Shown here in pieces: positions 6,648-47,332 of a DNA stretch of 64,000 nt. The position numbers were made by a program, and so were the translations under genes. Source of the DNA: Candidatus Dojkabacteria bacterium (lineage in GTDB: Bacteria; Patescibacteriota; Dojkabacteria; JAHIVN01); assembly GCA_016932045.1 (NCBI GenBank), contig JAFGDO010000011.1, positions 5,997 to 69,996 on the forward strand, given 5' to 3'. Within the stretch, counting starts at the first letter, position 1, and the number at the start of each line of letters is the position of its first letter. Under the pieces are notes generated by a model. It was given only the letters and a program-made list of their open reading frames with translations, searched no databases and had not been told where the DNA came from.

Positions 6648-7952
6648 TTGAGTATTTTGAGCACCCTTGGCAAGGTAAAAAAGGCGGTTTTATCTAGCAG
6701 GAACTTCTTGCTACTTTGGTTAGCTCAGTTATTTACCCAAAGTGCTGTGAGTATCATTACAATTCTTATGGGTATTCTTTCCGATGAAGGTACTCTATCT
6801 TCAGGAACAAAAGATTCTGCAACAAGCATCGGCATAATTGTTAACCTTTCAACACTTCCTGGTCTTGTCATATCTCCCATAGCAGGGGTATTGGCTGACT
6901 GGTTTAATAAGAAAAAGATCATGCTCTTTTCAAATTTATGTAGGTTGATTCTACTTATTTTATTTATATTAGTAAGAGGGTGGGAGAATCTGATTTTATC
7001 TTATTCACTAGTATTTATTCTTTCTATAATACTTCAGTTTTTCATTCCAGCAGAAGGCGGACTTATTCCGAGAGTTGCTGGTAAGAAGTACCTTTTGCTA
7101 GCAAGCTCTCTTTTTTCCCTAACAGTTTATACTACTCTGGCTGTTGGACTTGCGTTAGCCGGGCTTGTCTTGAATGTATTTGGTGTAGGAAGCACATTTG
7201 TCATTTGTGGTTTATTATTTGTGATAAGTGACTTTTTATTGATGCAGGTGAGAGTTCCGCGTAATGGTTCTGAGAGTAAATCATTTAAATATCTTTTTGA
7301 TTTTCTGAAAGAATTGATAACGGATGTTAAAAGTGGTATTTCCTATGCTTTTAAAATTAAACCTCTTAGGTTTGCACTTGTCCATCTTTTGCTTTTGCAA
7401 ATAGTTGCTCTTACTCTTGTAACAATAGTTTTCAGAATAGGGAGTGAAATATATGGGGTCTCCCCTCGAAGTGCAGGAATTGTCGTATTTGCTCCTATTG
7501 TTATCGGTTTACTTGTCGGGATTGCCTCTCTGAATATATTTGGGAAAGAGAGGAACAGGACACATCTTATCTGGGTTGGAACGATTTTTAGCATAATAGG
7601 CTTTGGCTTTATGGCAATGATATCAGCTATGAATGGCATGTTAGAGAAAGTCTTTCTTGATGAGGCTGTGGCAACAATTAGTCTAATTGCGGTGGGGTTA
7701 TCTGTTCCTTTTCTTCTCATTCCTGCTCAAACAATGATACATGAAAATACAAAGTCAAGTTTTAGGGGACGGGTACTTGGAATTTGGCTAGCATTAAACT
7801 CATCTTTTTCTTCTATCATAGCTGTTTTTATGGGAATTATAACTGATAAAGTAGGAGATATCTTTATTACGATTATGACCATTTTGATTTTAGCTATTTT
7901 ATATTCTGGTACTATCTTCTATCTTTATATAGTTAAGAAAAAGACGCTATGA
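6648..7952 (+). CDS. MFS transporter
   Basis: ~12 predicted TM segments. The N-terminal motif RNFLLLWLAQLFTQ is typical of MFS_3-type exporters. Confidence 0.8.
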   Translation: MSILSTLGKVKKAVLSSRNFLLLWLAQLFTQSAVSIITILMGILSDEGTLSSGTKDSATSIGIIVNLSTLPGLVISPIAGVLADWFNKKKIMLFSNLCRLILLILFILVRGWENLILSYSLVFILSIILQFFIPAEGGLIPRVAGKKYLLLASSLFSLTVYTTLAVGLALAGLVLNVFGVGSTFVICGLLFVISDFLLMQVRVPRNGSESKSFKYLFDFLKELITDVKSGISYAFKIKPLRFALVHLLLLQIVALTLVTIVFRIGSEIYGVSPRSAGIVVFAPIVIGLLVGIASLNIFGKERNRTHLIWVGTIFSIIGFGFMAMISAMNGMLEKVFLDEAVATISLIAVGLSVPFLLIPAQTMIHENTKSSFRGRVLGIWLALNSSFSSIIAVFMGIITDKVGDIFITIMTILILAILYSGTIFYLYIVKKKTL

Positions 7953-8935
7953 TTTCTTTTAGGAATTTAACAATCCCTGCTTTCTTGGTTTTTGAGATTT
8001 TGTCAGCTATCATGGTAAGTTTTTTCTTCTGGCGGAAGAAACGTGAGGGGAACTTGAAGAGTGAATCAATATTCGATCTGATTTTTGCCCATATAGCCCT
8101 AAGCATTGTATTGGGAAGAATTCTATATGTGTTAAACAACTCTGATCGTTTTGGTCAACTAAGTTGGTCAATATATCCGTATTATTATGAACCAGGTGCT
8201 GAGAGGGTCTGGTTTAAACAAATGCCATGGATCTTATTGAAGTTCTGGGATAGAGGTATTGAACCTGTAGGTATTATGCTTGGTGGTATTGTTGTCACTC
8301 TTTTATTTGTTCGGATAAAGAAACTTTCGCATAGATTCTATTATACAGTCGTTCTGGGTCTTTGTGTTTCTCAGATTATTCAAGCCATCGGTTTCTTTTT
8401 AGGAAGTGATTATATTGGGAAAATAACCGAGTTGCCAATCGGAATTGCGTATTCTGGTCAAGGCGAGGGTTTAAGGTTTCCTGTCCAGTTTGTTGAAGCT
8501 CTTGTTCTGCTGGTAACAATATTTTTGTCAAACTATTTAAGTAGGATAAAGAGAAACAAAGGAATTTTGGGTTTATATCTATTGACATTTGGTGTTCTTC
8601 AAATTGCAGTTGAATTATTAAAAGATAAAGAAGATGCAATTTCCCGAATAACAATTACACAGATTGTTTTAACTTTTATAGTTTTTATAGGCGTTTTGAT
8701 CCTTATATTTTCTTACCAACAGAAAGAATTATCGGTAAAAAGCGAAGGAGAATTTGTCCCGTCTGGTCCGGTATCGAGATCGGAAAGAGAGAGTGTGTCT
8801 GAGGCAAGAGTTCAGTACAGTTATAGGGATTTTCAGTCTTCATCGAAACAACGCGTGGGGAGCAGTGAATCTTTTTTTACAAGGATAAAGGAAAAATTAT
8901 TCAAAAAGAAGCGAGAAGCATCTCGATCAACATGA
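7949..8935 (+). CDS. lgt: Prolipoprotein diacylglyceryl transferase-like (divergent), with a Ser-rich C-terminal extension
   Basis: LGRILYVL resembles the GGRIGYVLFY motif. [26 protein letters not shown] resembles [38 protein letters not shown] resembles PRHPSQLYELLLEG. The ATGA start overlaps the MFS stop. Confidence 0.55.
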   Translation: [328 protein letters not shown]

Positions 8936-9079
8936 TTCACCTAGTTTAGCAGAAGTGATGCTAACGATAGAATGTGTAGATATTGCACAGTATATATGTT
9001 ATTCTTCTCTTGAGCAAAATTAAGTTTATAATCTAAAACTTAATTTTTTGTCCACGTTTTTATTTATTATATACAGTCT

Positions 9080-10036
9080 GTGTTGTTATCTTTAACTTCC
9101 TCTAATAAAGACATTCAAAAGAGGCTGGATGTATTCTTAAGCGAAAAAATGAGGGATGAGAGTAGGAGTTTTATTCAGAAGCTTATAAGGGCAGGGCATG
9201 TGGGAGTAAATGAGAAGATAGTAAAAAAGGGCAGTTTTAGACTAAAAGAGAAGAGCAAGATTAAAGTAGATGTAAAAAAACATACAGGTGTTGAAACAAA
9301 TATCAAGGCTGTATCTATTCCTCTTGATATACTGTACCAAGATAAGGACCTTATTGTAGTAAACAAGGAAAGCGGCATTTGTGTCCATCCTTCAAAGGGT
9401 AATTGGGATAACACCTTAATAAATGGACTACTCTTTAAGTTTAAAAGTTTAAGTAAAGTTGGAACTCCAAACAAGTTTGGTCTAATTCATAGAATTGACA
9501 AGGATACGTCAGGGTTGGTACTTATTGCTTTAAATAACAAGGCATTGTGGTATTTTTCTCGCCAGTTTGAAGAAAGAGAGGTAAAAAAAGAGTACATAGC
9601 TGTAGTTACGGGTGATGCAGGAAAAATATTCGGAAAAGAAAGTTTCGGAGTTTCCAATTATATCGGCCGGCATCCTATAAAACGGAAAAAGCTTGCTGTT
9701 GTAAAAAAAGAAAGGGGTAGACTTGCAACTACCTACTTTAATTTTTTGTCAGTAATGGAAGCTACAAACCAGAAAAAAATATCTTTAGTACTTGCAAAGC
9801 CAGTAACTGGTAGGACGCATCAGATTAGAGTACATCTTGCACATCTGTCGCTACCGATTTTAGGCGACGCTGTTTATGGGAATATGAAGTACAAACGACT
9901 TATGTTGCATGCTTACAAGATAAAGTTGAAAATGCTAGACGGGAACGAAAGGACATTTGTAGCGCCTGTACCTCGTGTTTTCTGTGAATTATTCAATATA
10001 AAGAACTTATTGCATGAAGAATTTATTTCTGGCTAA
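9080..10036 (+). CDS. rluD: RluA-family 23S rRNA pseudouridine synthase (RluD-like) with an S4 domain
   Basis: S4-like RLDVFLSEKM...IRAGHVGVNEK is present. The catalytic motif HRIDKDTSGLVLIA contains the Asp. GRTHQIRVHLA is also present. Confidence 0.85.
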   Translation: MLLSLTSSNKDIQKRLDVFLSEKMRDESRSFIQKLIRAGHVGVNEKIVKKGSFRLKEKSKIKVDVKKHTGVETNIKAVSIPLDILYQDKDLIVVNKESGICVHPSKGNWDNTLINGLLFKFKSLSKVGTPNKFGLIHRIDKDTSGLVLIALNNKALWYFSRQFEEREVKKEYIAVVTGDAGKIFGKESFGVSNYIGRHPIKRKKLAVVKKERGRLATTYFNFLSVMEATNQKKISLVLAKPVTGRTHQIRVHLAHLSLPILGDAVYGNMKYKRLMLHAYKIKLKMLDGNERTFVAPVPRVFCELFNIKNLLHEEFISG

Positions 10037-10107
10037 AGGGCATAAATAGAAAGAGGGGATATTGAAGTGAAAATGTTTTGCTTACTTAAAGATAAAATTA
10101 CAATTTT

Positions 10108-11460
10108 ATGAAGAATATTTTTACTAAATTAAAAAGAAAATTGAAGTCTATTCCCGGCAAGAGAGGGAAGAGGAAAGGCTTAAGTAGGTTTAGTATATTC
10201 AGCTCTTCAAGAAACATTTTAAATAGAAAAGGAAGGTTTCAAAGCGGAATCAAGAATATGTTATCTATTCTTCTTATTTTGCTTGTAATAGGTTCAATAA
10301 TAGCATGGTTGTCGGTAACAATATATAAAGTGGTGTCAGTTGATTTTGAGCCAGATTATCGTGACAAGTATGTCGAAAAAAGCCAGGAGTGGCGTGGAGA
10401 AGGAAGGCTAAATATTCTTTTGGTAGGGCTTGATAGACGTGAAAGTGAATATGCGTTTTGTGATGCGTTAATTGTTATTATGATTGACCCGTTTGATCGC
10501 AGTATTGGAATATTCGATATAAACCCAGATACCTTGATATACCTTCAAAAGTATAATAAGAATATAAAACTTAGAAATTTATATAACTTCGGAATTTTGG
10601 AGAGTGAAGAAATCCCTGTTGAATTGCTGCTGGAAGGAGTTGAAGATTTAATATCTATTAAAATCAGTCGTTATGTTGTGGTTGATGAAGAAGGAATAAT
10701 GCGGATTGCGGATACCTTGGGAGGGGTTTATGTAAGTAATACATCTGATCTTTCGGACAAAGACATTTCGGACAATGGTAAGAATTTTAGCTTGGGGAAA
10801 GGCAATTTTCGTTTAGGCGGCCAGGATTTACTGAATTTTTTGCGTGCTGATGACGATGGGGTTGAGAGTAAATTTTTAAGACAGATAGCAGGTACCGAGG
10901 GGCTTTTTAAACGTTCTGTTAGTTATTCTGCGATTCTGAGGCTTCCAAATTTCTGGAGTCTACTTTCTCAGGAAATTCGCACAAATTTATCAAAGAAGGA
11001 GATAATGCGACTTGGGATAATGTTTGGGCAGTATAAAGATCTTAAAACAGCCTTTATGTCCATTGAAGCAGCTGAAATAAGGGAGGGAGAGAGCGGACTC
11101 ACCGTTCTCCCTATCTTTGATGAACTGGATCAGGATATACAAAGAGTATTTATTGATAATCGTGTTGGTAAAGAACAGGCTAGAGTAGAGATTTTTAATT
11201 CGACAAATATTCGAGGGCTCGGTAACTTCCGCACAAGGTGGCTCAAGAATATAGGGATTGATGTTATAAGAGTTGGTGATGCGTCACCAACTCTTGCAAA
11301 GACAACTATATATACAAGAGAAGGAGGAGAATATCCAAACACAATTGAAGCAATAGACAAGTCCTTTGATGAGGAAATTGAAGTTTTAGAAGGTGAGCTT
11401 CCTAATTTTGTATGCACAGGAGATGTGATTGTCGTTTTAGGAGCTAATGTTGAGGATTAG
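10108..11460 (+). CDS. LytR-CpsA-Psr (LCP) family cell-envelope phosphotransferase
   Basis: A TM anchor is followed by the LCP core ILLVGLDRRESEYAFCDALIVIMIDP and a C-terminal LytR_C-like domain. Confidence 0.8.
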   Translation: MKNIFTKLKRKLKSIPGKRGKRKGLSRFSIFSSSRNILNRKGRFQSGIKNMLSILLILLVIGSIIAWLSVTIYKVVSVDFEPDYRDKYVEKSQEWRGEGRLNILLVGLDRRESEYAFCDALIVIMIDPFDRSIGIFDINPDTLIYLQKYNKNIKLRNLYNFGILESEEIPVELLLEGVEDLISIKISRYVVVDEEGIMRIADTLGGVYVSNTSDLSDKDISDNGKNFSLGKGNFRLGGQDLLNFLRADDDGVESKFLRQIAGTEGLFKRSVSYSAILRLPNFWSLLSQEIRTNLSKKEIMRLGIMFGQYKDLKTAFMSIEAAEIREGESGLTVLPIFDELDQDIQRVFIDNRVGKEQARVEIFNSTNIRGLGNFRTRWLKNIGIDVIRVGDASPTLAKTTIYTREGGEYPNTIEAIDKSFDEEIEVLEGELPNFVCTGDVIVVLGANVED

Positions 11461-11507
11461 AGATGAGGCAAAAAAGGGCAGAAGGTAGTATTTCAATCAG
11501 TTAGCCT

Positions 11508-11565
11508 TTCGCTATCCGTTATTGGCTATTCTTTTTTTTGCTTAAATTAACTATCCAGCCATCTA
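11508..11565. repeat. CTATCC/CCATCT-type intergenic motif copy
   Basis: cgctatccgttattggctatt ... aactatccagccatctaacc shares ggctatt / ctatccaKCCATCT with the arrays at 39131-39345. Confidence 0.35.
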
Positions 11566-12947: not shown

Positions 12948-13721
12948 ATGTCAGGGCATTCAAAATGGAAGAAAATTAAAAGACAGAAGGGTGTAGCTGA
13001 TCTTAAGAGAGGAAATCTTTTTACAAAGCTTGGCCAGGCAATAAGTATTGCCGTTAGAGAAGGTGGAGGTGGTGATCCTGATATGAATTTTGCCCTCAGA
13101 TTAGTTCTAGATAAGGCAAAGGACGTCAACATGCCTAAGGATACTATTGAAAGGGCGATTCAAAAGGGACTTGGTCAAGGTGATAGTGGGCCACTTGAAT
13201 CAATAACATATGAAGTAGTAGGGCCGGATGGAATAGCAATCCTTGTAGATTGTATGACAGATAATAAGAATCGAACAATTACTGAGATTAAAAAAGTTTT
13301 AACAAAGACTGATTTCAGTATCGGCGGGGGGAGTTTAAAATGGCAGTTTGAAGAAAAAGGGAGCATTATTCTTGAATCTTTTGAAGAGGCGAAGGAGATT
13401 GTAAAGGGAAAAGAAGAAATATGCTACAAAAGAATTGATAAAGACGAAACTATATTGAAATTAATGGAGATTGATGGGGTAGAGGATGTAATAGAGAACG
13501 GGCAGGAAATTATTGTATATACAGCCAAAAAGAAGTTACAAAGGGTTTTTGGGAGTATAAAGGATTTAGGATTAAAGGTGACAGGGGTCGAGATTATCAA
13601 ATTGGCGAAGAATTATTTAGATATTCAAGATGCACAGAAGAGGAGAATATTATCGCTGATGGAAGAGATAGATGAGAATCCTGATGTTACAGCTACATGG
13701 ACCAATGTGAAATTACAATAG
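12948..13721 (+). CDS. yebC: YebC/PmpR-family DNA-binding regulator
   Basis: The hallmark N-terminus MSGHSKWKKIKRQKGVADLKRGNLFTKL is present. Confidence 0.9.
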   Translation: MSGHSKWKKIKRQKGVADLKRGNLFTKLGQAISIAVREGGGGDPDMNFALRLVLDKAKDVNMPKDTIERAIQKGLGQGDSGPLESITYEVVGPDGIAILVDCMTDNKNRTITEIKKVLTKTDFSIGGGSLKWQFEEKGSIILESFEEAKEIVKGKEEICYKRIDKDETILKLMEIDGVEDVIENGQEIIVYTAKKKLQRVFGSIKDLGLKVTGVEIIKLAKNYLDIQDAQKRRILSLMEEIDENPDVTATWTNVKLQ

Positions 13722-13746
13722 ATAGATAAGATATTATAGATAGATT

Positions 13747-14238
13747 ATGAGGGTGCTGGGTATTGACTGTGGGATAGCTATAACGGGTTGGGCAGTACTT
13801 GAGCGATTGGATGGGATAGGTAATAAGGCGCCGGATATAATTGATTATGGAGTAATTCGAACAGATTCAGGTCAGGTAATGTCGCATCGATTATCGAAAT
13901 TGTATGAAGAGGTTATAGGAAAGATTAATCTTTACAAACCAGAGAGCGCAGCCATAGAAAGCCTCTTTTACTTTAGAAATCAAAAAACCGTTATGAGCGT
14001 GGGACAGGCACGTGGAGTGATTATACTAGCTTGTGCGCATAAGGATCTGCCGACACATGATTATACACCTCTACAAGTTAAACAGGCCGTTGTTGGTTAC
14101 GGAAAGGCCGAAAAGAAGCAAGTACAGAGAATGATTAAGCTGATTTTAAAACTAGAAGAAACTCCAAAACCTGATGATGCTGCCGACGCTTTAGCTGTTG
14201 CCTTATGTCATTTAAATAGTTTTAATGGTAGAAGGTGA
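13747..14238 (+). CDS. ruvC: Holliday junction resolvase RuvC
   Basis: MRVLGIDCGIAITGWAVLE carries the catalytic Asp. Length is 163 aa. Confidence 0.9.
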   Translation: MRVLGIDCGIAITGWAVLERLDGIGNKAPDIIDYGVIRTDSGQVMSHRLSKLYEEVIGKINLYKPESAAIESLFYFRNQKTVMSVGQARGVIILACAHKDLPTHDYTPLQVKQAVVGYGKAEKKQVQRMIKLILKLEETPKPDDAADALAVALCHLNSFNGRR

Positions 14239-14313
14239 AAGGTCTAAGACATAGTGTGGAAAGTGGAAAAGGACGTTAAAATGCATTCTTAACTTAATAC
14301 TTATTACTTAAAA

Positions 14314-14919
14314 ATGATTGGTTATCTTAGAGGAAAAGTTAAATATCAAACAGATGGATATTTATTAGTTGAATGTTCAGGTGTCGGTTATAAGGTTGAG
14401 GTAGGAAAGATTTCCTTGTCCTTGGGAGTTGACAAGGATATAGAATTGTACATATATACTCATATGCGTGAAAATGAACTTCGCCTTTTTGGTTTCGAGA
14501 CTCCTGAGGAGTTATCGCTTTTTGAGATGCTTATCGATATAAGTGGGGTTGGTCCTAAGGTAGCGATTTCTTTACTGAAAGAATTAGGAGTTAAGAAAAT
14601 AGTAAGTAGTATCCTTGAGAAGAAAGCTTCAGGATTAAAGGTGAGCGGGGTAGGGTTAAAGACGGCGGATAAGATAGTTTTAGAGCTACACGATAAATTG
14701 AAGAAGAAGGGGTATGTTATAAGTGAAAGGGAGAAAAAGCAAGCTATAATCGATGACGAGCTCGATGACAGAATAGAAGAAGCAAAGGCAGCCCTAATTA
14801 GTCTGGGGTATTCACTGAAAGATATTAAGGCTGTGATTGCGAATATAAAAGATAAACAAGGGCTTTCAGATTTAAGTTCAGAAAAGCTTGTAAAATATAT
14901 GCTTTCTGAAATGAAATAA
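14314..14919 (+). CDS. ruvA: Holliday junction branch-migration protein RuvA
   Basis: MIGYLRGKV...GVGYKVEV is present. The HhH domain [14 protein letters not shown] is present. Confidence 0.9.
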
Positions 14920-15953
14920 TGGATGATAAGGAAAAGAGTAAAAAATTATCCTCAAATAATTCGGACACTAACGGAGAATTCGAGAGTTCTTTAAGGCCGA
15001 AAAAGTTTACACAGGTTATTGGGAGAAAGAAAGAGAAAAAGAACTTACAAATCATGATTGAGGCTGCTTGTCGAAGGAATGAAGCCCTTGATCATATTCT
15101 ATTTTATGGTCCCCCGGGGCTTGGGAAGACGACTCTTGCAAATGTTGTTGCAAATGAGTTGGGTGTTGATATCTTGGTAACATCTGGTCCGGCCTTAGAA
15201 AGACAGGGCGATTTGGCATCTATTCTAACAAATCTTCCTAAAAGAGGAGTTCTTTTTATAGATGAGATACATAGGTTAAACAGCTCTGTGGAAGAGATAA
15301 TGTATCCTGCAATGGAGGATAAGGCTATTGACATTGTTATTGGGAAAGGACCTTCTGCAAGAACCCTGCGTTTAGATCTTGAGGATTTTACTCTTGTAGG
15401 GGCAACAACTAGAATAGGTCTTGTAAGTTCACCGCTAAGAAATCGTTTTGGTGCATGTATGCGTCTTGATTTTTACTCGCCTGCAGAATTAAAAGAGATG
15501 GTATTTCAGAAGGCTAGAATATTAAAGACAGATATTGAGGATGATGCGGCATATGAGATTGGAAAAAGATCTAGAGGGACGGCTAGAATTGCGATTCGAC
15601 ACCTTAAAAGAGTTAGAGATTATGCACAAGTAACAAATATTAGAAGAATTGACCTTAAAGTTGTAGATAAGGTTTTGAGGATGCATGATATTGACGATGC
15701 TGGACTGGATGATGTTGATAGAAAGATACTTAAACTTGTTATTGAGGATTTTGTTGGTGGGCCAGTCGGAATATCGACAATTGCAGCAGCTTTGTCTGAA
15801 GAAGTATCAACCATTGCAGATGTTTACGAACCGTTCCTCATTCAGGAAGGTTTTATAAAGAGGACTTCTAGAGGGCGTGTTGTAACACCAAAGGCATATA
15901 AGCAGCTAGGAATAGATTATGAAGAGACTGCTAAACAACAGGATTTAATTTAA
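14919..15953 (+). CDS. ruvB: Holliday junction ATP-dependent helicase RuvB
   Basis: [26 protein letters not shown] is the Walker A motif. The TAATG stop/start overlaps ruvA. Confidence 0.95.
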
Positions 15954-15964
15954 CAAAACAAAAC

Positions 15965-16777
15965 ATGAGTCTTAGAACAAAAGCTATCGTTTTAAGTGTT
16001 CTCGTGATTATTATATCTTTAATTCTGCAAACAGTTGACCTTAGCAGTACCATTAGCTTCACTCAAGAGATAGCAAAGGCACTACTTGTTGCGGGAGTAT
16101 TTTTGGTGGGGTTGTATTGGGTCCTAGGTTTTAAAATCAAAGGAATCAGGCTGCTTACTATACTTGGTTATTCTTCCTATATTGTTTTTATTCAAGCATT
16201 ATTTATTGAACTAGTCATATTCCAAAGTGAAGGTAGGATAAGTGAGAGGACATTTTCTTTGCTTGTGCTTTTCTTTTTTGGGATAAGCATATATCTTCTT
16301 ATCCTTACAATGAATATATTAAATATTTCCTATATTTCTAAAATCCCCCTAGCGCAGGCTGCAAAAGCAGCGAATTTCTTGTTTACTTTATTTGGGGCTT
16401 ATTTCTCATTTTTACTTATACTGAGGTCTGGGGTCTTTGTTGTAATAAAGCTCATTGTATTTTCCTTTGTAGTATTCTTACTAACACTAAATATCTTTTG
16501 GTTTAAAAAGGAATCTGCCAGGCAACTTTTTGGTGAGACTGTTGCAGTTGTATTGAGCATTGCAACTGCATTTGTGATTTTTATAATTTGGCCTCTCTCA
16601 GTTGAAGTGGCAACTATGTTTTATGTCATTGTTTACTATATATTTCTCAGTCTGGGGCTTGAGGAAAAAGAAACAACTTCAACAGCAATGAGGGTAGAGT
16701 ACATGATACTGCTTTTCCTGGCAGTATTTCTCCTCTTAAAACTAGCAGTCTGGGGTATTAATGGCGCTTTCATCTAG
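15965..16777 (+). CDS. Polytopic membrane protein of unknown function
   Basis: 270 aa, ~8 hydrophobic segments. Confidence 0.5.
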   Translation: MSLRTKAIVLSVLVIIISLILQTVDLSSTISFTQEIAKALLVAGVFLVGLYWVLGFKIKGIRLLTILGYSSYIVFIQALFIELVIFQSEGRISERTFSLLVLFFFGISIYLLILTMNILNISYISKIPLAQAAKAANFLFTLFGAYFSFLLILRSGVFVVIKLIVFSFVVFLLTLNIFWFKKESARQLFGETVAVVLSIATAFVIFIIWPLSVEVATMFYVIVYYIFLSLGLEEKETTSTAMRVEYMILLFLAVFLLLKLAVWGINGAFI

Positions 16778-17748
16778 ATGTTAATTTTTTCTTATATATC
16801 AGAACACTATCTAAATCCTGTGCTCCGGTTTAATTTGTTCAATATGTTAAATAAATTACTGCTTTATATTTGTCTAATTTATTCACCTGAAAGTCTTGGA
16901 TCATGAAGGCTTGAGTAACAGAGTAGGGGAGCAGGGCAAGAAAAATCCGAGACCAACGATTATTATAGGATAAAATACTATAAGATACACAATATTTTTC
17001 GAATTAGGAGGTTAAAAGAATAAGAAGTTCTAGAAGCAAGGAAGATCCAGATGTTCAAGGTATAACTTGCCCCATTATATTCAGCTGTACTATTTCACAA
17101 GAATGTTTCACAATGGATGATACGATTGTGGATAACTGTGTGGTACTAACGAGGGTGGGTTGTAGGTGACTGTGTAAAACTATTGTGATCAACTATAGAT
17201 AAGCACAAGTCGGTAGTTGGAAATAAAGGGGGAAGAAAATAAGGTTGTGTTCTAATTCGTGCATCTACTCCTCTAGTATAAAATAGGTGCCTAAAGTTAC
17301 AAAGTATATGGTGCGTATAATCACCCTTATATGCAGTAACATAGAGTAGAAACGTGGGGTATACATAATTTTGGAAATTTTTACGGCAAATCAATTTGTG
17401 TCATTTCATTATTTTTAAATTTATAGGATATTTTTTATGTTAATCCTTCTCTAATATTTATATGTGTTTCCAGTATACTTTAGTTTAGTTATACCAGGAA
17501 TTGGGCCAATACCCATTTGATGGTTAACGAGTTTTTCGTTCAAGAGAGGGTATTTTGAGAAATTTTAGTGATAAGATTTGTTTCAGCTTGAAAAAGGCAC
17601 TCCCCCATCGACTACCAGTTCACTCTCTCGCCTTTTTTTGGTAAGCTTATACTATGGATATGTATTTACAATAGTTAATAACCAGAGTAGTCAAACCAAA
17701 TAGATTGAAAAGTGCTGTATCTCAAGCCTAAATTAATAAATAGTATAA

Positions 17749-39345: not shown

Positions 39346-39473
39346 GTCTGTTGGTAGACAGGGATCCGCCTAGGTCGGAAACTACTTATCTGTGTCCTAC
39401 TTCTTTCCAATTTGAAACTTCTGACAGATATAGTACAATGTTTATGAAATTTTTTGGTTTTTGTAAATTAAGT

Positions 39474-40055
39474 ATGTCGAAACTAGGAAAGAAATTCTTA
39501 AAAATTTACTCAAGGCAATCTGCATATACTATTTTAGAACTATTAATAGTCTTGTCGGTTGTTGGTACGATGATGGGAATTGTTGTTTATGGTGTTGTTA
39601 AGTTTAGGCAGACTGTTATTGTAAGTAATACAGCGAAAGAGATAGTTATTCAGATGAGGAAAGCAAGGAGGTATTCAATTAATAACGTCGTTACATCAGA
39701 TGGATTGAATCCTAGAGGATATTATTTTTATATTGATAATAATACAAATTACTACTTTGGTGAATGCGATTCGGGAGGTTGCACACATGAAGAAAAGGTG
39801 AAATCTGTAGAATTAACAGGAGTTAATGTTTCAGCTTGTAAAGTTGCCGGAGGCAATAGTTATCCAGTAATAAAATTTAACCAGGTGACTGGAGAATTTA
39901 TCTTTGTAGCTAGTTCTGCTTCAAGTGATATTATGGGTGCCACATCCCCTTCCTATAATGAGACATGCATCATAGAAGTAGAGATCGGTGGGACCATAAG
40001 TTCCTTGAGGGAAATTGAAGTTTCTGGTCAGAATAGGACTATTAGAATTAAATAG
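39474..40055 (+). CDS. Type IV minor pilin/pseudopilin. The start is uncertain; alternatives are 39438 and 39351.
   Basis: The prepilin-like sequence MSKLGKKFLKIYSRQSA|YTILELLIVLSVVG has E at +5 and Ala, not Gly, at -1. Confidence 0.55.
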   Translation: MSKLGKKFLKIYSRQSAYTILELLIVLSVVGTMMGIVVYGVVKFRQTVIVSNTAKEIVIQMRKARRYSINNVVTSDGLNPRGYYFYIDNNTNYYFGECDSGGCTHEEKVKSVELTGVNVSACKVAGGNSYPVIKFNQVTGEFIFVASSASSDIMGATSPSYNETCIIEVEIGGTISSLREIEVSGQNRTIRIK

Positions 40056-40257
40056 TAGCGAACTGCAAACAGCAAACAATAACCTGTTTGCCGAATGGAA
40101 ATTGACGATTTAGCATTGTCCTTTGACTAGCTCGACTTGACTGTATTCGTCCCGAGGTCCTTCCTGGCCTGACGTGCAGGACAGACAGACCGAGGGAAGC
40201 TCGTCGCAGGCAGGATAGAAAGATTGTCATATTGTTTATTGTAATATGGGGATTTAA

Positions 40258-40803
40258 ATGAGTAAATTGATAGGTAGTAAAATAAGACATCTTAAGGAAT
40301 TGGTTCGAGGATCAGATGGGCTTGGACTAGTTGAGGTTTTAGTTGCTCTGGCAGTCGTAGGTACTGCTATGGTTATCATTACACAGATTAGCCTCAAGAC
40401 TATAAAGCAGGCGAGGAAAAATGAACTCCAGGACGTAGCCAACCAGGTAGCTGTCGAAGCTTTGGATTTTATGAAACAACCAGGTAATATCACAGTGGAA
40501 ACAATTGGCGGGAGTAGTCCTAATTTAAATGGCGGTTTGTACAGATTGGATGTTGCAAATGGGAAAATTGAGTATAGTTCTTCCCAGCAGGCTGAGTTAA
40601 GTACAAGTAATTGTACTCCAGGGAGTCACTATTTAGATGCAAGTCTTTACTCATCAGGGTACCATGTCTGTCAACAAATTAAACTGACGAAAGTTTCAGA
40701 ATATAGATTTAATATCAAAGTAATTGTGGTATGGCAGACAGTTGGAGGAGAATATGATATTCGCGAATTGGCAGGATATAGGATTGGTGAGATTATTACT
40801 TAA
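40258..40803 (+). CDS. Type IV minor pilin/pseudopilin
   Basis: The class III signal is ...VRGSDG|LGLVEVLVALAVVG with G-1 and E+5. Confidence 0.65.
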   Translation: MSKLIGSKIRHLKELVRGSDGLGLVEVLVALAVVGTAMVIITQISLKTIKQARKNELQDVANQVAVEALDFMKQPGNITVETIGGSSPNLNGGLYRLDVANGKIEYSSSQQAELSTSNCTPGSHYLDASLYSSGYHVCQQIKLTKVSEYRFNIKVIVVWQTVGGEYDIRELAGYRIGEIIT

Positions 40804-40813
40804 GAATAAATAA

Positions 40814-41395
40814 ATGGATATATGTCACAGGCTGTTACAAAAAGTTAAGAGAGTAATATTTTCCGATTCGAGTGGTTTCTCTTTACTTGAACTGTTAATT
40901 ACGCTTGGAATATTTTCAATATTGATGGTAACAGTGACAGCTATTCTAGTTATAAATTTAAATGTTGCAAGAAAGATAAAGGGAAGAACTTATGCAAGAG
41001 AAGAGACGGCTTTTGTTCTCAATATTCTCAAGAAAGACATAAGAAATGCCGAGTTTATAGAAGAAGATTCCGGGAAATTAAGAGTAGTTGTAATTGATGA
41101 AGGAGGAAACAGCCGTACTTATGAATGGTCCCATGATGGTGATGATATAGTTCGCGAGGAAACTATTCCTGACACAAGAGTTACTTATCGAACTCCTGAG
41201 GACGTTGATTTTGAATCATTTAATTTTACGGTAACTGAAAATGAAAATAATTGGCTAGTAAGAATTTCAGTTACAGCATGGAGCGCTGGAATGCCCGGGC
41301 AACCCCTTGAGGATGGGGGCTCATGTAGTAATACTGAACAGCAATGTATCACAAAAGAAGTTGCAATTGCTACTAGAAATTTCGAGGAGCTATAA
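40814..41395 (+). CDS. Type IV minor pilin/pseudopilin
   Basis: The class III signal is ...IFSDSSG|FSLLELLITLGIF with G-1 and E+5. Confidence 0.65.
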   Translation: MDICHRLLQKVKRVIFSDSSGFSLLELLITLGIFSILMVTVTAILVINLNVARKIKGRTYAREETAFVLNILKKDIRNAEFIEEDSGKLRVVVIDEGGNSRTYEWSHDGDDIVREETIPDTRVTYRTPEDVDFESFNFTVTENENNWLVRISVTAWSAGMPGQPLEDGGSCSNTEQQCITKEVAIATRNFEEL

Positions 41396-41462: not shown

Positions 41463-42404
41463 TTGTTTCTTATAATGAAGTTTTTTCTAAAATCGATCAT
41501 AAATAGAATTAAGAAGAGAGATGAATCAGGGCAAATGTTGCTTTTTGTCTTGGTTGTAATTTTATTATTGCTGATCATAGTTCTTGCTATTGTTGTAAAC
41601 GTAAGGGTAGATATAAAAGAAACTCAAATGGAAAGGGAGTATGAGATGGGATACGCTATAGCAGAGGAACAAATTTTTAAAATTGCTTCTCTGGGCTATG
41701 CTGATGCAAAGGCGGAAAATGATAGTGCAAATTCGTGTTATACAAACACAGGTGATACTGGAACATTCTGTCCAGGAACAGAAGGGTGTGCTGGGGGCTG
41801 GGTGTGTACGGCCTATTGCTGCAAGGACTCACCTCCTTCAGGATGTGACTGTGACAGCGGAGATTGTTTTGTTGATAAAGTGTGCACTCACAATAGTATA
41901 TTTGGTGTATCTATAAATCAAGATGAAACTTTGGAAGTCGACCTCGGTGGACAGTCGGTTAGTGACTTTACAGATATATTTATTGATTGGGATACTGCAG
42001 AGGCTATATCTTTAATGGTTGTTTACAAGGATGGCCCTGGTAATTATCTAAATCAAAGGTTAGCAATGTGCAGAGAAGGCAATAATGGTTGCTATACAGG
42101 ATTTATAAACTATGATAATAGTCTGAATCTTGAATCTGACTGGAAAGGTGGCGTTACTATTTCCGGAACTGCAGTACTAATGAGAATAAGAGCGATTGGT
42201 GGTCAGGCAACAAATGTAACTGTTACAGGCAGTAACCTTCCCGTACAAATGGATGAAGTACGAGTTCAAGGTTTTACTGAAGGAGTAGCAGATGCAAAAG
42301 GTTTGTCTGCTCCTGAAGTTACAACATTAGCGATGAAGAATAAAAGGTTACCTGCTCTATTTGATTATGTACTATTTGTAGCAAATGATGATGTTACTAA
42401 ATAG
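41463..42404 (+). CDS. Pilus-associated membrane-anchored Cys-rich protein (PilX-like position)
   Basis: There is an N-terminal pilin-like hydrophobic helix without E+5. The Cys-rich module is CPGTEGCAGGWVCTAYCCKDSPPSGCDCDSGDC. Confidence 0.45.
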   Translation: MFLIMKFFLKSIINRIKKRDESGQMLLFVLVVILLLLIIVLAIVVNVRVDIKETQMEREYEMGYAIAEEQIFKIASLGYADAKAENDSANSCYTNTGDTGTFCPGTEGCAGGWVCTAYCCKDSPPSGCDCDSGDCFVDKVCTHNSIFGVSINQDETLEVDLGGQSVSDFTDIFIDWDTAEAISLMVVYKDGPGNYLNQRLAMCREGNNGCYTGFINYDNSLNLESDWKGGVTISGTAVLMRIRAIGGQATNVTVTGSNLPVQMDEVRVQGFTEGVADAKGLSAPEVTTLAMKNKRLPALFDYVLFVANDDVTK

Positions 42405-42421
42405 TTATATTAATTTTTAAA

Positions 42422-42829
42422 ATGTTTGTACAAATGGCAGAGACAAAAGAAGCTAAAAAAAGACGGGTGTTAATTGTAGATGATGAGCCCGACCTGCGTA
42501 TGATGTTTAAGGACATTCTAGGTACTTTCGGGTACGAATTAGATGAGGCTAGCGATGGAGTTGAGTGTCTGGAGAAGCTAAAAAAGGGCAAATATGATCT
42601 TATCCTGCTCGATCTTATGATGCCTAGAATGGATGGTATGGAGGCTTTAACACGTATAAAGCAAGAGCCAGATAAGTATGGGAGTGCTCCTGTTCTCATT
42701 CTCACGAATCTTACAAGTGATGTGGCTATAAAGGAGGGATTTGAAAGGAAAGCTGATGGCTATCTTATCAAAACAGAGCTGACCCCGGAGCAAGTGGTGA
42801 AAGAGATAGAAAAGTCATTAGGTAAGTAA
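42422..42829 (+). CDS. Single-domain response regulator (CheY-like receiver)
   Basis: VLIVDDEPDLRMM...YDLILLDLMMPRMDG...PVLILT is present, with the phospho-acceptor Asp and the conserved Lys region. There is no output domain. Confidence 0.85.
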   Translation: MFVQMAETKEAKKRRVLIVDDEPDLRMMFKDILGTFGYELDEASDGVECLEKLKKGKYDLILLDLMMPRMDGMEALTRIKQEPDKYGSAPVLILTNLTSDVAIKEGFERKADGYLIKTELTPEQVVKEIEKSLGK

Positions 42830-42887: not shown

Positions 42888-43439
42888 ATGAAGGTTCTTC
42901 TTGATAGGTTAAAAATGCTTTGTGACAATAAGATAATACTTATTGTATTTATACTCATCCAGCTGGTACTTCTCTATGGTTTGACTTATTGGGGTTATCA
43001 CTCCTCTCGCCTACCCTACTGGTTTGATAACTTTGTGCACGAGACGAGAGTATGGAGGATTTACGGTAGAAAAGATTATAGTGTGCGGCCTGTTAGTCCT
43101 GAGACTTGGTTGGACCCCAGGCTAGGTTTCCTAAAGAAATCTTTTTGTGTACAAGAGATAAATGGATTCTTAAGAGGGAAAGAGGTGGTCAGTGAGGAAA
43201 AGGAGTATTGGTATATTGAATCCAGTGATCATCCAGAGGTAAAGATAGAAGTGAATAAACCCGTTGGTGAGGTTTTCTTGAAAGATTGCCGAGATACTGA
43301 GGATTGCAGCAAAGTTCAGGAAGTATCAGGAAATATTGATGAAGTAGAAGTCGGAGATGCTTTGATTATCCTGCAGGAGGAATCATACGAAGAGGAGCAT
43401 ACGATAAAAACTGGGACTATACGTATAATTAAATATTAA
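42888..43439 (+). CDS. Hypothetical membrane-anchored protein
   Basis: 183-aa ORF with an N-terminal TM. Confidence 0.4.
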   Translation: MKVLLDRLKMLCDNKIILIVFILIQLVLLYGLTYWGYHSSRLPYWFDNFVHETRVWRIYGRKDYSVRPVSPETWLDPRLGFLKKSFCVQEINGFLRGKEVVSEEKEYWYIESSDHPEVKIEVNKPVGEVFLKDCRDTEDCSKVQEVSGNIDEVEVGDALIILQEESYEEEHTIKTGTIRIIKY

Positions 43440-43448
43440 AATGGTCAT

Positions 43449-43826
43449 TTGAAGAAAGTAACTTTGGTGCTAAAAATCATAGCAGTTGTTTTTTTTGTAT
43501 TGAATCTATTTGTGGGTATAGTTATGATTCTCAATGTTGCAAACATGAAGAATAAGTCGTTTTTTTATCTACACAAGTTGAGTAGTGATGGTGGATTGGA
43601 TGAACCAAAGGTGAATCAGTTAATTGAGGATTGTAACTATGCAGATGAAGTGCTTGTATGTAATACGAATAATGATTTTATGATTTGGGGGAGGTATGAA
43701 TATGGTTTGGGGAAATTATCAGCGGGGACTTGTGAAGTTCTTGGGCTTGATAAAAATGGTTTGTCTTACTGTGCAAGAGGCGAAAATTATTTATGGATTC
43801 AGCCCGTTACTTATGAGGAACGTTAG
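43449..43826 (+). CDS. Hypothetical membrane-anchored protein
   Basis: 125-aa ORF with an N-terminal TM and a conserved Cys pair. Confidence 0.4.
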   Translation: MKKVTLVLKIIAVVFFVLNLFVGIVMILNVANMKNKSFFYLHKLSSDGGLDEPKVNQLIEDCNYADEVLVCNTNNDFMIWGRYEYGLGKLSAGTCEVLGLDKNGLSYCARGENYLWIQPVTYEER

Positions 43827-46731
43827 TTGTACTACAAGGAAGATTTTATATTGTTTGACTAGTACTTTTTTGGTGCTGATGTTTTGTGTTTTATTGTTCA
43901 GGGCTAGTGAAGTAAATGCTGTTTGCGGTGATTGTGGGTCATGCGGTCACCAATGCGGCTCAAGTTGCAGCGGCTGTGCATTGTGTTGCGCTTGCGGTGG
44001 AAATCCTTCTTGTGGTACTGGCAGCTACCCTTACTGTTGTAAGGACTGCAATAAAGGTGGGCATACAGATTGCTGCTGTGGAGGTTGTTTTCCTCCTGAA
44101 ACAAAAGTTACCATGGCGGATGGTTCTTTTAAGAATATCGAGGATATGAATGAGGGAGATGAGATCCTTACTTATAATGATGATATAGGAAAGAATGTTG
44201 CTGGAGAAGTACTCCAGGTTAAAACTTTTTCGAGAAATGGATATTATGTAGTGAATGACAATTTGCTAAAAGTTAGCGACAGTCATCCTATATATGCAAG
44301 GAAGTGGTATGGGCGGGAAACGTGGGCAGCTATAAATAAGTTTCAGGGGATTGTTGACTCAGGGTTAACGGAGCTGTCTTCACTTGAGGTTGGTGACAGC
44401 ATTTTGAATCAGGAGGGCGAATGGATACAAATAACATCTTTAGAATATTTTGCTGGAGGACTTGAAACATACACTTTAGTTTCCGACAATGGAACATTTT
44501 ACGCTGAGGGTTTTTTAGTTCATAATAAAGGATGTAGTTGTCAGACACCCAACGGAGTATCTTTAGTTTCTCCTGCAAATGGTACAGTTGAAATTGCATC
44601 GACTAGTGTTACATTGGACTGGACAGACACTTCTGATTGGAAAAAATGTTGTGATGACTGCAGTAAACATTACGAAGTTAGATTGAAGACAACTGGTGAT
44701 TGGTATGAACCAGGCGATTGTACTAATCCAACTTCTTCGACTTGTACTGTATCAGGTTTAAGCTGGTGTACAACCTATCAGTGGCAGGTAAAAGCAGATA
44801 ATGGGTGCAAATCATCAAGTTATACAGGGGTGTGGACATTTAAAACGAACTGTCTTCCGGAAGTTATTTCAGTAACGCCATCAGGGAATTGGTCTGGGAC
44901 AGAAACTGATACGGATAATGCCTCGGGATGTAGTGATAATAATCCTCAGACTTTCCAGATTGAATATAGAGATCAAGATGGGCATGATGATCTGTACTCA
45001 CTGGGGATATGGATAGATGACCAGGCTCCGCATGTGATGCAGATGCACAGCTCAATGCATGGAATGGCATCAAGAAGAGAGGGAGATTGGAGGATGTTTG
45101 GTTGGAGCTGCGATACAAGCAGACATGACACATGCGGGAGTTTACTAGATTGTGATTGTTATCTGAATTGGGATCTTGATGTGCCTTATTATGGTGTTGT
45201 TATTCCAGAGTCAACATACTCAATTTGTTCACCGAAAACTATTACAAATAGATCTGATGAATCACCATGGGATTTTTATGCCTTGTGTGATCCTCAATAT
45301 GCTCCACCAGTGAATTGGACAATATCAAATCTTCAGGGTTTTCCAGCTTCAAATACTAAGCTGGTTGACTGGAAGGTATGGTTTTATGGGGATATTGGAA
45401 CAAACTTAGATATCTATGCTGTAGCTATTGATGAACATGGGGCAAGATCAGGCAACTGGCAGGACATAGGAGACTGGAAGTTGGATCTGGACCTGCCTTT
45501 GGCAGACCCAGCACCACAGCCAAATTCGGCTTCACAAATGAGGGTTGACTGGGCAGTAAGTGAGGCAAAAAGCGGTATAAGAACAATAGACAGAGATTGC
45601 AGGAGTGATTTAGGAAGTAGTGATATTCCTGATTGTGGATGTGCAACAGGATTATGTACAACGTGTGAGAATCCTGCTGATCCACAGACATGTTATAGGG
45701 GGAGGAATACGAATTGGAAGAAAGCAGATGGAACTGATGACGGGGTGGATGACGTGGTAATGCCGGGAGGGACAAGCTGGACACATACGAACTACGATAC
45801 GATAACAGACATATCAAGTATAGAAGACGTACAATACAAGCTGACAGTGTCAGATAATGCATGTAATCAAAATAGGGTCGTAGATGAACAGGAATTGGGC
45901 AAAAGATGGATAAGGACAGATTATGGAGATACATATGCAAGTGGAGGATATAGTCTGCAGATACCGGATTTGATAGCTGAGGATAAAAGAGACAACCTTT
46001 CAAGATTCATATGCTCATCAGGGGTAGCAGTGAATGCATTTAGTCCTGGGGGAGCAAGTGTATATAATTATAGACTTTTTAGTTATGCAGATGAGAATAA
46101 GAATAAGACGTTTTATGATTATCTTGAAGAGATAGTAAGAGAGAATGATGATCATGAAAGCTGGAACATGGGAAGCTTCAGTACACCAGCACAGTGGGAT
46201 GGGATACAAAGCGCAGGGACAGACGGAGTGTATGAATGGACAGCAGGGACAGATTTAAACCTTTCAGGGAAGAATTGTACTGCAAAGACATTAGTATTTG
46301 TTCCATCTGGGCAGCTTATTATAACGCCGAATTTCGGGGTAACTGATGTAAGTGTAGCTGGGAGTGATAATGGATGTGTATTTGTAGTAAGGGACAATAT
46401 AGTGATACAAGCAGGAGGAGTAGGAACAGGATCATATTCCTCACCATATTATCCAGACACTGTACCATATGATTCGGTATATGGATTCTTCATCACAGAT
46501 GGGAATGTGATAATAGATGCTGATACAAACTATGACCAGCTCTTGATAAAGGGAGGGGTGATAAGCAGGGGGGGGACATTTGGAAGGGACTTACTCCTGC
46601 TAGATAATCTAATATTTGCAGCAGAGAGGATAGAGTATGATGCAAGGTATCTGGACATATTGAAACCGTACATAGGAAGTAATTACACGTATAAAGTAAG
46701 AGAATACAAATATTCTGAACCTACCTACTAA
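43813..46731 (+). CDS. Large secreted protein with a bacterial intein-like (BIL/Hint) autoprocessing domain. Start chosen at MRNVSC; the ORF-track start is 43696.
   Basis: The signal peptide is MRNVSCTTRKILYCLTSTFLVLMFCVLLFRASEVNA. It is followed by a ~55-aa Cys/Gly/Ser-rich segment, then the Hint module CFPPETKVTMADGSF...LKVSDSHPIYA...TFYAEGFLVHN at nt 44086-44526. FN3-like and large C-terminal domains follow. Confidence 0.7.
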   Translation: MRNVSCTTRKILYCLTSTFLVLMFCVLLFRASEVNAVCGDCGSCGHQCGSSCSGCALCCACGGNPSCGTGSYPYCCKDCNKGGHTDCCCGGCFPPETKVTMADGSFKNIEDMNEGDEILTYNDDIGKNVAGEVLQVKTFSRNGYYVVNDNLLKVSDSHPIYARKWYGRETWAAINKFQGIVDSGLTELSSLEVGDSILNQEGEWIQITSLEYFAGGLETYTLVSDNGTFYAEGFLVHNKGCSCQTPNGVSLVSPANGTVEIASTSVTLDWTDTSDWKKCCDDCSKHYEVRLKTTGDWYEPGDCTNPTSSTCTVSGLSWCTTYQWQVKADNGCKSSSYTGVWTFKTNCLPEVISVTPSGNWSGTETDTDNASGCSDNNPQTFQIEYRDQDGHDDLYSLGIWIDDQAPHVMQMHSSMHGMASRREGDWRMFGWSCDTSRHDTCGSLLDCDCYLNWDLDVPYYGVVIPESTYSICSPKTITNRSDESPWDFYALCDPQYAPPVNWTISNLQGFPASNTKLVDWKVWFYGDIGTNLDIYAVAIDEHGARSGNWQDIGDWKLDLDLPLADPAPQPNSASQMRVDWAVSEAKSGIRTIDRDCRSDLGSSDIPDCGCATGLCTTCENPADPQTCYRGRNTNWKKADGTDDGVDDVVMPGGTSWTHTNYDTITDISSIEDVQYKLTVSDNACNQNRVVDEQELGKRWIRTDYGDTYASGGYSLQIPDLIAEDKRDNLSRFICSSGVAVNAFSPGGASVYNYRLFSYADENKNKTFYDYLEEIVRENDDHESWNMGSFSTPAQWDGIQSAGTDGVYEWTAGTDLNLSGKNCTAKTLVFVPSGQLIITPNFGVTDVSVAGSDNGCVFVVRDNIVIQAGGVGTGSYSSPYYPDTVPYDSVYGFFITDGNVIIDADTNYDQLLIKGGVISRGGTFGRDLLLLDNLIFAAERIEYDARYLDILKPYIGSNYTYKVREYKYSEPTY

Positions 46732-46855: not shown

Positions 46856-47332
46856 ATGAGCAAGAGAAGAATCGGCTATATATTTATTCTTGTTGGTGTT
46901 CTAGTTGCAGTCTTTTCAGGTGTTGTTGTTCTATCACTAACCTTGAAGGAGAAAGAGGAATATAAGGAAATAGAAGAGATTGAGGAGGAAGAAGGGTTTG
47001 AAGAGGAAAGTCCCGAAGAGATAGTAAGGGAAGCTTTTGGAGGGGTTTATCCTTTAAGCGGTGAAATTATTGAGATAGACGTAGGTGAAAAGTGGATAAT
47101 GGTAAAGGTTGATGATGAAGAAAAAAGGTTTGATATTTCAGATAACTTTAAATGCGAGCAAATAGGTATGCCGGGTCAGGTTTGCGAAAGTATGGAAGGC
47201 ACCGGATGTGATTTGGAACCGTTAACTTGTAGGCTTTCTTCTGTCGAAATAGAGAATTCTCTTGGCGTTGATTTGGAGATTGATTCGGATAACGAGGCTG
47301 TATTTTTAAGAGTACATTACATTGCCCATTAA
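46856..47332 (+). CDS. Hypothetical acidic membrane-anchored protein
   Basis: N-terminal TM and a Glu-rich low-complexity region. Confidence 0.4.
   Translation: MSKRRIGYIFILVGVLVAVFSGVVVLSLTLKEKEEYKEIEEIEEEEGFEEESPEEIVREAFGGVYPLSGEIIEIDVGEKWIMVKVDDEEKRFDISDNFKCEQIGMPGQVCESMEGTGCDLEPLTCRLSSVEIENSLGVDLEIDSDNEAVFLRVHYIAH

Follow-up and report, generated by a model that had tools for sequence, protein, structure and literature searches.

An intein-like Hint domain in a predicted secreted protein of a type IV pilus locus of Candidatus Dojkabacteria

On contig JAFGDO010000011.1 of a Candidatus Dojkabacteria bacterium a stretch of 64 kb (the window, meaning the whole stretch that was analysed) harbours a type IV pilus (T4P) locus, and between the minor pilin genes and pilMNO of this locus lies a gene encoding a predicted secreted precursor of 972 amino acids (aa), the target protein, with an intein-like domain close to its N-terminus. 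This raises the question of what the domain is, whether it would process its host protein and what it is doing in a pilus locus. Bacterial intein-like (BIL) domains have been known since 2003, though their use to the hosts is still poorly understood. The answer considered probable here is that the domain is a catalytically competent Hint domain of the type A BIL group, situated in a Gly-rich linker, which would self-cleave after export and so separate a Cys-rich leader and the Hint from a mature pilus-associated protein.

The Hint domain and the precursor that carries it

When the target was analysed as a single sequence the scores stayed just short of the curated cut-offs, both for Pfam Hint (24–29.5 bits, cut-off 29.7) and for the NCBIfam models intein_Nterm (21.6, cut-off 24.5) and intein_Cterm (14.6, cut-off 15.6), which is the reason why the public annotation of the protein shows only fn3 and why a family profile and structure prediction were needed. 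The single sequence matches the solved structures of BIL2 (6y75/6tmm) over the full length of the domain with an E-value (E) of 2e-6. A homology search with the target gave 54 homologs, all matching the Hint segment only save one full-length ortholog and two weak matches in the fibronectin type III (FN3) region. From these, 93 complete Hint domains were extracted, of which 58 non-redundant domains were aligned (alignment A1), and the resulting 58-domain profile matches BIL2 (6y75) with E 1.5e-27 and a BIL domain of Clostridium thermocellum (2lwy) with E 2.7e-23, while inteins follow from 1e-11.

The residues on which the chemistry of Hint domains depends are all in place. The nucleophile Cys92 (44086-44088) is the sole Cys inside the domain, block B has the sequence Ser155-x-x-His158 (S-D-S-H, 44275-44286) with a Ser where the family has Thr, and the domain ends with His237-Asn238 (44521-44526) followed by Lys239. 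Cys1 and the block-B His are invariant across the 58 domains and the terminal Asn is found in at least 90% of them; in the same alignment the target shows a Thr in place of the Asn of the family motif Y-N-L. Aligned to 6y75, Cys92 and Asn238 fall on the positions mutated there (C1A and N143A) and S-x-x-H falls on its TVNH. An AlphaFold2 model of the domain, built on the 58-domain alignment, reached a predicted local distance difference test (pLDDT) of 95.1 and a predicted template-modelling (TM) score of 0.89. Foldseek placed this model on 6tmm (TM 0.85, E 1.6e-11), on 2lwy (TM 0.73/0.81) and on hedgehog 1at0 (TM 0.68), each with a probability of 1.00, and mini-inteins were also among its best structural matches.

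The domain is thus a member of the Hint superfamily by fold, profile match, nucleophile and block B, and its identity as a type A BIL Hint is close to certain. A reading of this DNA from its sequence only had proposed a complete Hint module at 44086-44526 with a Cys at its start, an (S/T)xxH motif, a terminal HN and a Lys behind it, and the profile matches, strongest to solved BIL domains, the predicted Hint fold and the catalytic alignment all bear this out. Its residue numbering, 131-277, counts from an ATG at 43696; from the ATG at 43813 the Hint occupies aa 92-238. A six-frame search with the Hint profile found a single Hint in the window. Between the target and its ortholog the Hint shows 52% identity with two gap columns (44–64% identity in the other parts of the mature protein), which argues that it is under constraint and not decaying.

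Following the signal peptide, the precursor consists of a Cys-rich leader, the Hint, an FN3 domain, a variable region and a C-terminal beta-solenoid (Table 1), with 47 Cys in total and a C-extein of 734 aa after the Hint. The Cys- and Gly-rich segment and the FN3-like domain flanking the Hint had both been pointed out in the sequence-only reading; the former is as described, and the latter can now be named, being a Pfam match above cut-off. The protein is identical to the NCBI hypothetical protein JW766_02855 of Candidatus Dojkabacteria (P0001), which in NCBI starts at 43879 and has 950 aa, and it has an ortholog (P0002, locus L001) with 48% identity and an equal layout in an independent, syntenic assembly. 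Read from the sequence, the predicted signal peptide has a basic n-region, a hydrophobic core and a c-region of the small-x-small kind, and the signal cleavage site is expected after VNA, the ortholog having AQVNA at the equivalent place. A Pfam scan found no match to the prepilin (N_methyl) motif in the target. When searched against Pfam, the C-extein and the paralog showed no family besides fn3.

The start codon is ambiguous within 43696-43879. The ATG at 43696 overlaps the preceding gene by ~130 nt, the ATG at 43813 gives a full Sec-type signal (...EVNA), and the NCBI start, situated 22 codons further in, clips the n-region.

Table 1. Coordinates in the window of the target gene, the parts of its product and its paralog
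Feature	Position	Strand	Details
Whole gene, 972-aa secreted precursor	43813..46731	+	Stop-free open reading frame; predicted secretion
Predicted Sec-type signal peptide, aa 1-36	43813..43920	+	MRNVSCTTRKILYCLTSTFLVLMFCVLLFRASEVNA; read from sequence
Cys/Gly-rich leader (N-extein), aa 37-91	43921..44085	+	55 residues with 16 Cys and 13 Gly; ends in CCCGG
Type A BIL/Hint domain, aa 92-238	44086..44526	+	147 aa, CFPPETKV...FYAEGFLVHN; profile, fold and residues
C-terminal junction, K-G-C-S-C	44527..44541	+	Lys239 is +1; Lys belongs to the conserved HNK motif, G-C-x-C to the host protein
Fibronectin type III domain, aa 254-335	44572..44817	+	Pfam fn3, E 2e-6, 28.2 bits (cut-off 25)
Conserved C-terminal domain, ~300 aa, aa 668-972	45814..46728	+	Predicted triangular beta-solenoid; defines the host family
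Hint-less paralog, 693 aa	47341..49422	+	Sec signal, shared C-terminal beta-solenoid; 26% identity, E 4e-22

Insertion site, host family and relatives of the Hint

When the C-extein was searched against 1.84 billion representative proteins, 650 relatives were found at E ≤0.001, and among the matches listed the C-terminal domain is common to 47 of the 148 new representatives while the Hint is present in none of the 148. Many of the relatives show the layout of the target without the Hint, with a Sec signal, a Cys-rich segment, a joint of the form ...CGG-GGC.C..P and then FN3. In P0056, for example, ...GNPCGG is followed directly by GGCGCSNPGAVSLLAPADN, and in P0058 ...CPSGG is followed by GGCDCKRPNTTSLSSPANN, while in the target the Hint stands between ...DCCCGG and KGCSCQTPNGVSLVSPANG. 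Since the flanks are directly joined in the relatives, the Hint together with the Lys behind it is a clean insertion in a Gly-rich linker.

In the pilus loci the Hint was found in 3 of 16 complete family genes, namely in the target, in its ortholog and in the second of two paralogs in locus L002. This locus belongs to the Dojkabacteria isolate STE_172 and has one paralog without a Hint (8093-10900) and one with a Hint at the boundary between leader and FN3 (13171-16851), where ...NCTCPDPS precedes the Hint, CFPAGTMV...GLLVHN, and KDDGVSCFCKC... follows it. A search with the L002 protein revealed three distant Hint-bearing proteins (P0235, P0240 and P0236), in all of which the signal is followed by a short Cys-rich leader, the Hint (C...HNK), a variable region and the beta-solenoid; two of them are not next to pil genes. 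Cys1, T/S-x-x-H and His-Asn are kept in all six Hint-bearing family members.

When the family members were compared with the Hint removed, the L002 paralogs were each other's closest relatives, the Hint-bearing protein being closest to its Hint-less neighbour (486 bits) with the target outside its top six. The target was nearest to its ortholog and then to Hint-less proteins, and the P0235 group stood separately. The Hint-bearing proteins, at least six in number, thus come from three host lineages, each of them nearest to relatives without a Hint. The L002 Hint itself is nearest to Hints of archaea-attributed proteins and not to the Hint of the target. The simplest reading of these sequence relationships would be three gains of a Hint at the same architectural position, the alternative being repeated precise loss. 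That the family gained its Hint only once was rejected as the simplest reading, the L002 Hint lying near the archaeal-attributed Hints and the hosts, once the Hint is taken out, grouping with Hint-less relatives.

The wider subfamily to which these Hints belong has a conserved ending, (V/A)-H-N-K. Among 113 junctions the penultimate His is present in 101 and the terminal Asn in 108, while position +1 is occupied by 80 Lys, 16 Ala, 8 Thr (from the HNT junctions of P0004) and 4 Arg, with no Cys or Ser. In most members 2-9 Hints stand in tandem, connected by K-G(n)-C linkers, within large proteins of which many are attributed to Thermoplasmata archaea; the arrays comprise nine Hints in P0004 and seven in P0003, and P0010 and P0029 are further homologs of the array type. 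About ten subfamily proteins stop at HN, HNK or HNKW, and as these have no C-extein the chemistry at the N-terminal junction must count for the subfamily as a whole.

A side observation concerns the AXH module of Ataxin-1 and HBP1. Pfam AXH matches 41 of the 58 Hint domains (best E 9.6e-19), and the 58-domain profile matches the AXH structures of Ataxin-1 and HBP1 with E 1e-9 to 2e-5 across about 100 residues at the N-terminal end (44086-44400 in the window), which suggests homology between AXH and one half of a Hint domain. In the library that was searched, no paper names both AXH and Hint.

Processing of the precursor and its alternatives

In the proposed sequence of events the precursor would leave the cell via the Sec pathway, with the signal cut after VNA, and the Hint would fold outside the membrane. 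Cys92 would then act on the carbonyl of Gly91 in an N-to-S acyl shift, aided by Ser155 and His158, to give a thioester, and Asn238, aided by His237, would cyclise and break the bond between Asn238 and Lys239. The thioester would mostly be hydrolysed or thiolysed, and the products would be a 55-aa Cys-rich peptide, the free Hint and a mature FN3/beta-solenoid protein of ~80 kDa starting at Lys239, while a minor fraction may be ligated when the new amine of Lys239 attacks the thioester. Type A BILs with a terminal His-Asn and no +1 nucleophile give mainly cleavage products (PMC4031507, PMC7664689). The Hint is quite likely to be catalytically active, and the chance that cleavage is the main outcome is put at about even.

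The closest known systems agree with this placement. Type A BILs (C. thermocellum BIL4, 2lwy, and BIL2 of the Tetrahymena thermophila BUBL1 locus, 6tmm/6y75) are the best matches in both sequence and fold, and the target shares with them a mini-Hint of ~140-150 aa without an endonuclease, Cys1, T/S-x-x-H, His-Asn and a non-nucleophilic +1 residue, as well as the location in a variable region of a secreted protein, so that every property of type A BILs open to computation was found. It differs from the known ones in its host, a beta-solenoid protein of a Patescibacteria pilus locus, and in being placed near the N-terminus, right behind a Cys-rich leader, with the conserved HNK ending. With class 1 mini-inteins (Ssp DnaB, 1mi8) it has the fold and the catalytic residues at both junctions in common, but it lies outside the conserved site of a housekeeping enzyme, most of its host homologs have no Hint, and with Lys at +1 the branched intermediate cannot form. 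A canonical class 1 intein was rejected, the +1 residue being Lys and the site a low-complexity linker instead of a conserved functional site.

Several points weigh against self-cleavage as the fate of the precursor. The target on its own stays below the Pfam and NCBIfam gathering scores and has Ser for Thr in block B. The Cys-rich leader is kept in all Hint-bearing members, which would be odd if it were merely discarded and favours ligation, retention by disulfides or a function of the leader itself. In the ~ten subfamily proteins that end at HN or HNK, C-terminal cleavage frees nothing, so that the conserved activity may concern the N-terminal junction only. Cys92 could be blocked by the extracellular redox state together with the 16 neighbouring Cys. 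Finally, the role at the pilus tip is drawn from the locus position and from a model with pLDDT 70, and the protein has no pilin-like domain.

The main rival is splicing by aminolysis, in which the Hint would be a near-neutral, intein-like passenger and the leader would be ligated to Lys239 via thioester, Asn cyclisation and aminolysis as the main outcome, bringing back the layout of the Hint-less relatives. In type A BILs the flanks can be joined by aminolysis even when no nucleophile stands at +1 (PMC4031507), the conserved +1 Lys (80/113) offers two amines with Cys241 two residues further on, and both the direct joint of the flanks in Hint-less relatives (...CGG-GGC.C..P) and the leader that stays Cys-rich in every Hint-bearing member would fit such a ligated product. 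The sequence-only reading, which had recognised the BIL pattern, did not expect any splicing; the Lys at +1 is indeed in keeping with a type A BIL, a group in which cleavage prevails (PMC4031507), but given the possible ligation and the joined flanks of the relatives this was too strong. As cleavage products dominate in the type A BILs that have been tested (PMC4031507, PMC7664689), as a Hint without a homing endonuclease would have no selfish spread and yet is found in three host lineages at one and the same place in the architecture, and as many subfamily proteins stop after the Hint, so that ligation cannot be a general subfamily role, splicing as the main outcome is judged rather unlikely. 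An acyl transfer as in Hedgehog, where cholesterol is attached by the same first step (PMC7664689), would have the Gly91 thioester resolved by a lipid, an envelope amine or a group on the surface of a partner or host, leaving the Cys-rich peptide covalently attached. The ~ten proteins ending at HN, HNK or HNKW would then reflect conserved chemistry at the N-terminal junction, where Cys is also enriched at -1 in the subfamily (19-21%, background 1.7%). Here, however, FN3 of the host follows directly where an adduct-recognition region would be expected behind the Hint, no acceptor can be named and the intact His-Asn speaks for use of the C-terminal junction as well, which leaves this an improbable outcome. 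A Hedgehog-type (Hog) domain as such was rejected, His-Asn being present and the C-extein of 734 aa following.

That the Hint is an inactive relic, a folded but catalytically dead spacer in the mature protein, could be read from the scores below the curated Pfam and NCBIfam thresholds, the Ser in block B and the Thr in Y-N-L. This is very improbable, as the four canonical catalytic residues are intact in 6/6 members, among them orthologs 48% identical and far more distant relatives, and there is no Cys elsewhere in the domain. For a pre-toxin Hint of a polymorphic toxin, from which a toxin at the C-terminus would be set free and delivered to a neighbouring cell, the resemblance lies at the level of the subfamily. 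Pfam PT-HINT matches 39/58 of its domains (best E 3e-19), and the 58-domain profile matches the 1368-aa chain 8w20 (E 3e-20), which is probably the Streptomyces umbrella-toxin protein UmbC1. In UmbC1 the Hint is placed with a C-terminal toxin domain (10.1101/2023.12.09.570830). PT-HINT is likewise an autoproteolytic Hint in exported proteins, close in sequence to the subfamily, but the HINT peptidase is normally situated just before a short C-terminal toxin domain (PMC3482391), whereas the Hint of the target is found near the N-terminus, at aa 92-238 of 972, and is followed by a conserved, non-toxin FN3/beta-solenoid part of 734 aa that is mostly Hint-less elsewhere. Even with E values up to 1 allowed, PT-HINT did not match the target, the Pfam scans showed no toxin family, and the small gene behind the target is kept in the syntenic locus of the ortholog, unlike a variable immunity cassette. 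The toxin reading has next to no likelihood and was rejected on domain order.

A more far-reaching version, in which the Hint is not a passenger, is unlikely. Patescibacteria pilus-associated beta-solenoid proteins would have acquired the Hint three times or more, always at one site, as a switch for their maturation outside the cell, with the leader as a cap or pro-peptide that thioester chemistry sheds on cue or transfers covalently to an acceptor, arming the pilus protein for binding of a host or DNA. The cue may for instance be reducing conditions, since Cys92 and Cys89 form a C-G-G-C motif. A C-x-x-C spans the N-terminal junction both in the target (CGG before the Hint Cys) and in the ortholog (CCS before it), but Cys at -3 occurs in 3% of the subfamily and is not enriched, and the redox trap is therefore kept only within this speculative version.

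The pilus locus and the role of the host protein

In the window the genes encode, in order, PilB, PilT, PilC, a pilin, a prepilin-peptidase-like protein and three more N_methyl pilins, after which come a 313-aa membrane protein, a response regulator, two small membrane proteins and the target. Behind the target lie a small protein, the paralog and then PilM, PilN-like and PilO-like genes, so that the position between the four minor pilins (39351-41395), all near the target and with N_methyl matches, and pilMNO is as the sequence-only reading had placed it. The ortholog locus L001 is syntenic with the window. When loci were scanned with the C-terminal domain, using a 6-sequence alignment as the 16-sequence version was too diverse, eight genome loci from Dojkabacteria, Saccharibacteria and other Patescibacteria and three metagenome loci were found. 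The 11 further loci whose flanks could be read (the eight genome loci, L001 and two metagenome loci) are all T4P loci in which one or two family genes adjoin pilM, and the host protein is thus a regular yet unannotated part of Patescibacteria T4P loci. The earlier remark that a protein of this kind is not a standard T4P component holds for the Hint and must be given up for the host family.

The best structural match of the C-terminal beta-solenoid is ComZ, the competence-associated pilin of Thermus thermophilus (6qvi; PMC6561018), the model having a pLDDT of 70 and thus moderate confidence, while the C-terminal-domain profile searched against the PDB sequences gave no match, ComZ included. ComZ serves as a comparator for the host protein and not for the Hint. 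The two have in common a triangular beta-solenoid, predicted in the case of the target, and a gene located in a T4P/competence pilin locus (in the window and in 11 loci), but the pilin-like domain and the prepilin-type N-terminus of ComZ have no counterpart in the target, which has a Sec-type signal, a Cys-rich leader, the Hint and FN3. In the preferred explanation the mature protein would work with the pilus, possibly at the tip as proposed for ComZ. The host protein may also correspond to the 'PilX'-type proteins of Saccharibacteria, which have a non-PilD signal (PMC12206443). In cultured Saccharibacteria T4P are required for host attachment and twitching (PMC12206443).

Some further features of the locus were noted. 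Small predicted membrane proteins without a family match are encoded before the target (42888-43439 and 43449-43826) and before the paralog (46856-47332), and a homolog of the protein at 42888 precedes each of the two large L002 genes (6751-7329 and 10932-11558); this arrangement of small and large genes resembles a cassette that is repeated within the pilus locus. The response regulator at 42422-42829, stand-alone and CheY-like, lies between the minor pilin and beta-solenoid genes and shows 82-90% identity in five related pilus loci and 52% in L002, with its neighbours far less conserved. The 313-aa protein (41463-42404) has an N-terminal membrane helix, no N_methyl match and a Cys-rich stretch, CYTNTGDTGTFCPGTEGCAGGWVCTAYCCKDSPPSGCDCDSGDC, is conserved behind the minor pilin genes of L003, L009 and L011, and may represent either a minor pilin of a non-canonical kind or a partner of the beta-solenoid proteins. 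In both GC skew and AT skew the window shows a reversal of sign at about 17, 32 and 52 kb, and the last two reversals go together with a change of the coding strand (29-56 kb, where open reading frames were listed).

A literature search found no paper joining intein-like domains, type IV pili and the candidate phyla radiation (CPR), and none joining ComZ and CPR. What is new here is the context, namely a ComZ-like solenoid protein of a Patescibacteria pilus locus as host, the site behind a Cys-rich leader and the recurrence at this site, while the domain type is well known. A compact Hint of 147 aa with a single Cys, presumably active outside the cell, could interest protein engineers. The L002 pair and the paralogs of the window form natural matched pairs, with one site that is found both with and without a Hint, and offer a clean system for the role of BIL domains. 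For the Patescibacteria the finding would add a self-processing step to an unannotated, conserved component of their T4P loci; ComZ is the proposed DNA-receptor protein of the pilus tip, and the pili of Patescibacteria are candidates for DNA uptake.

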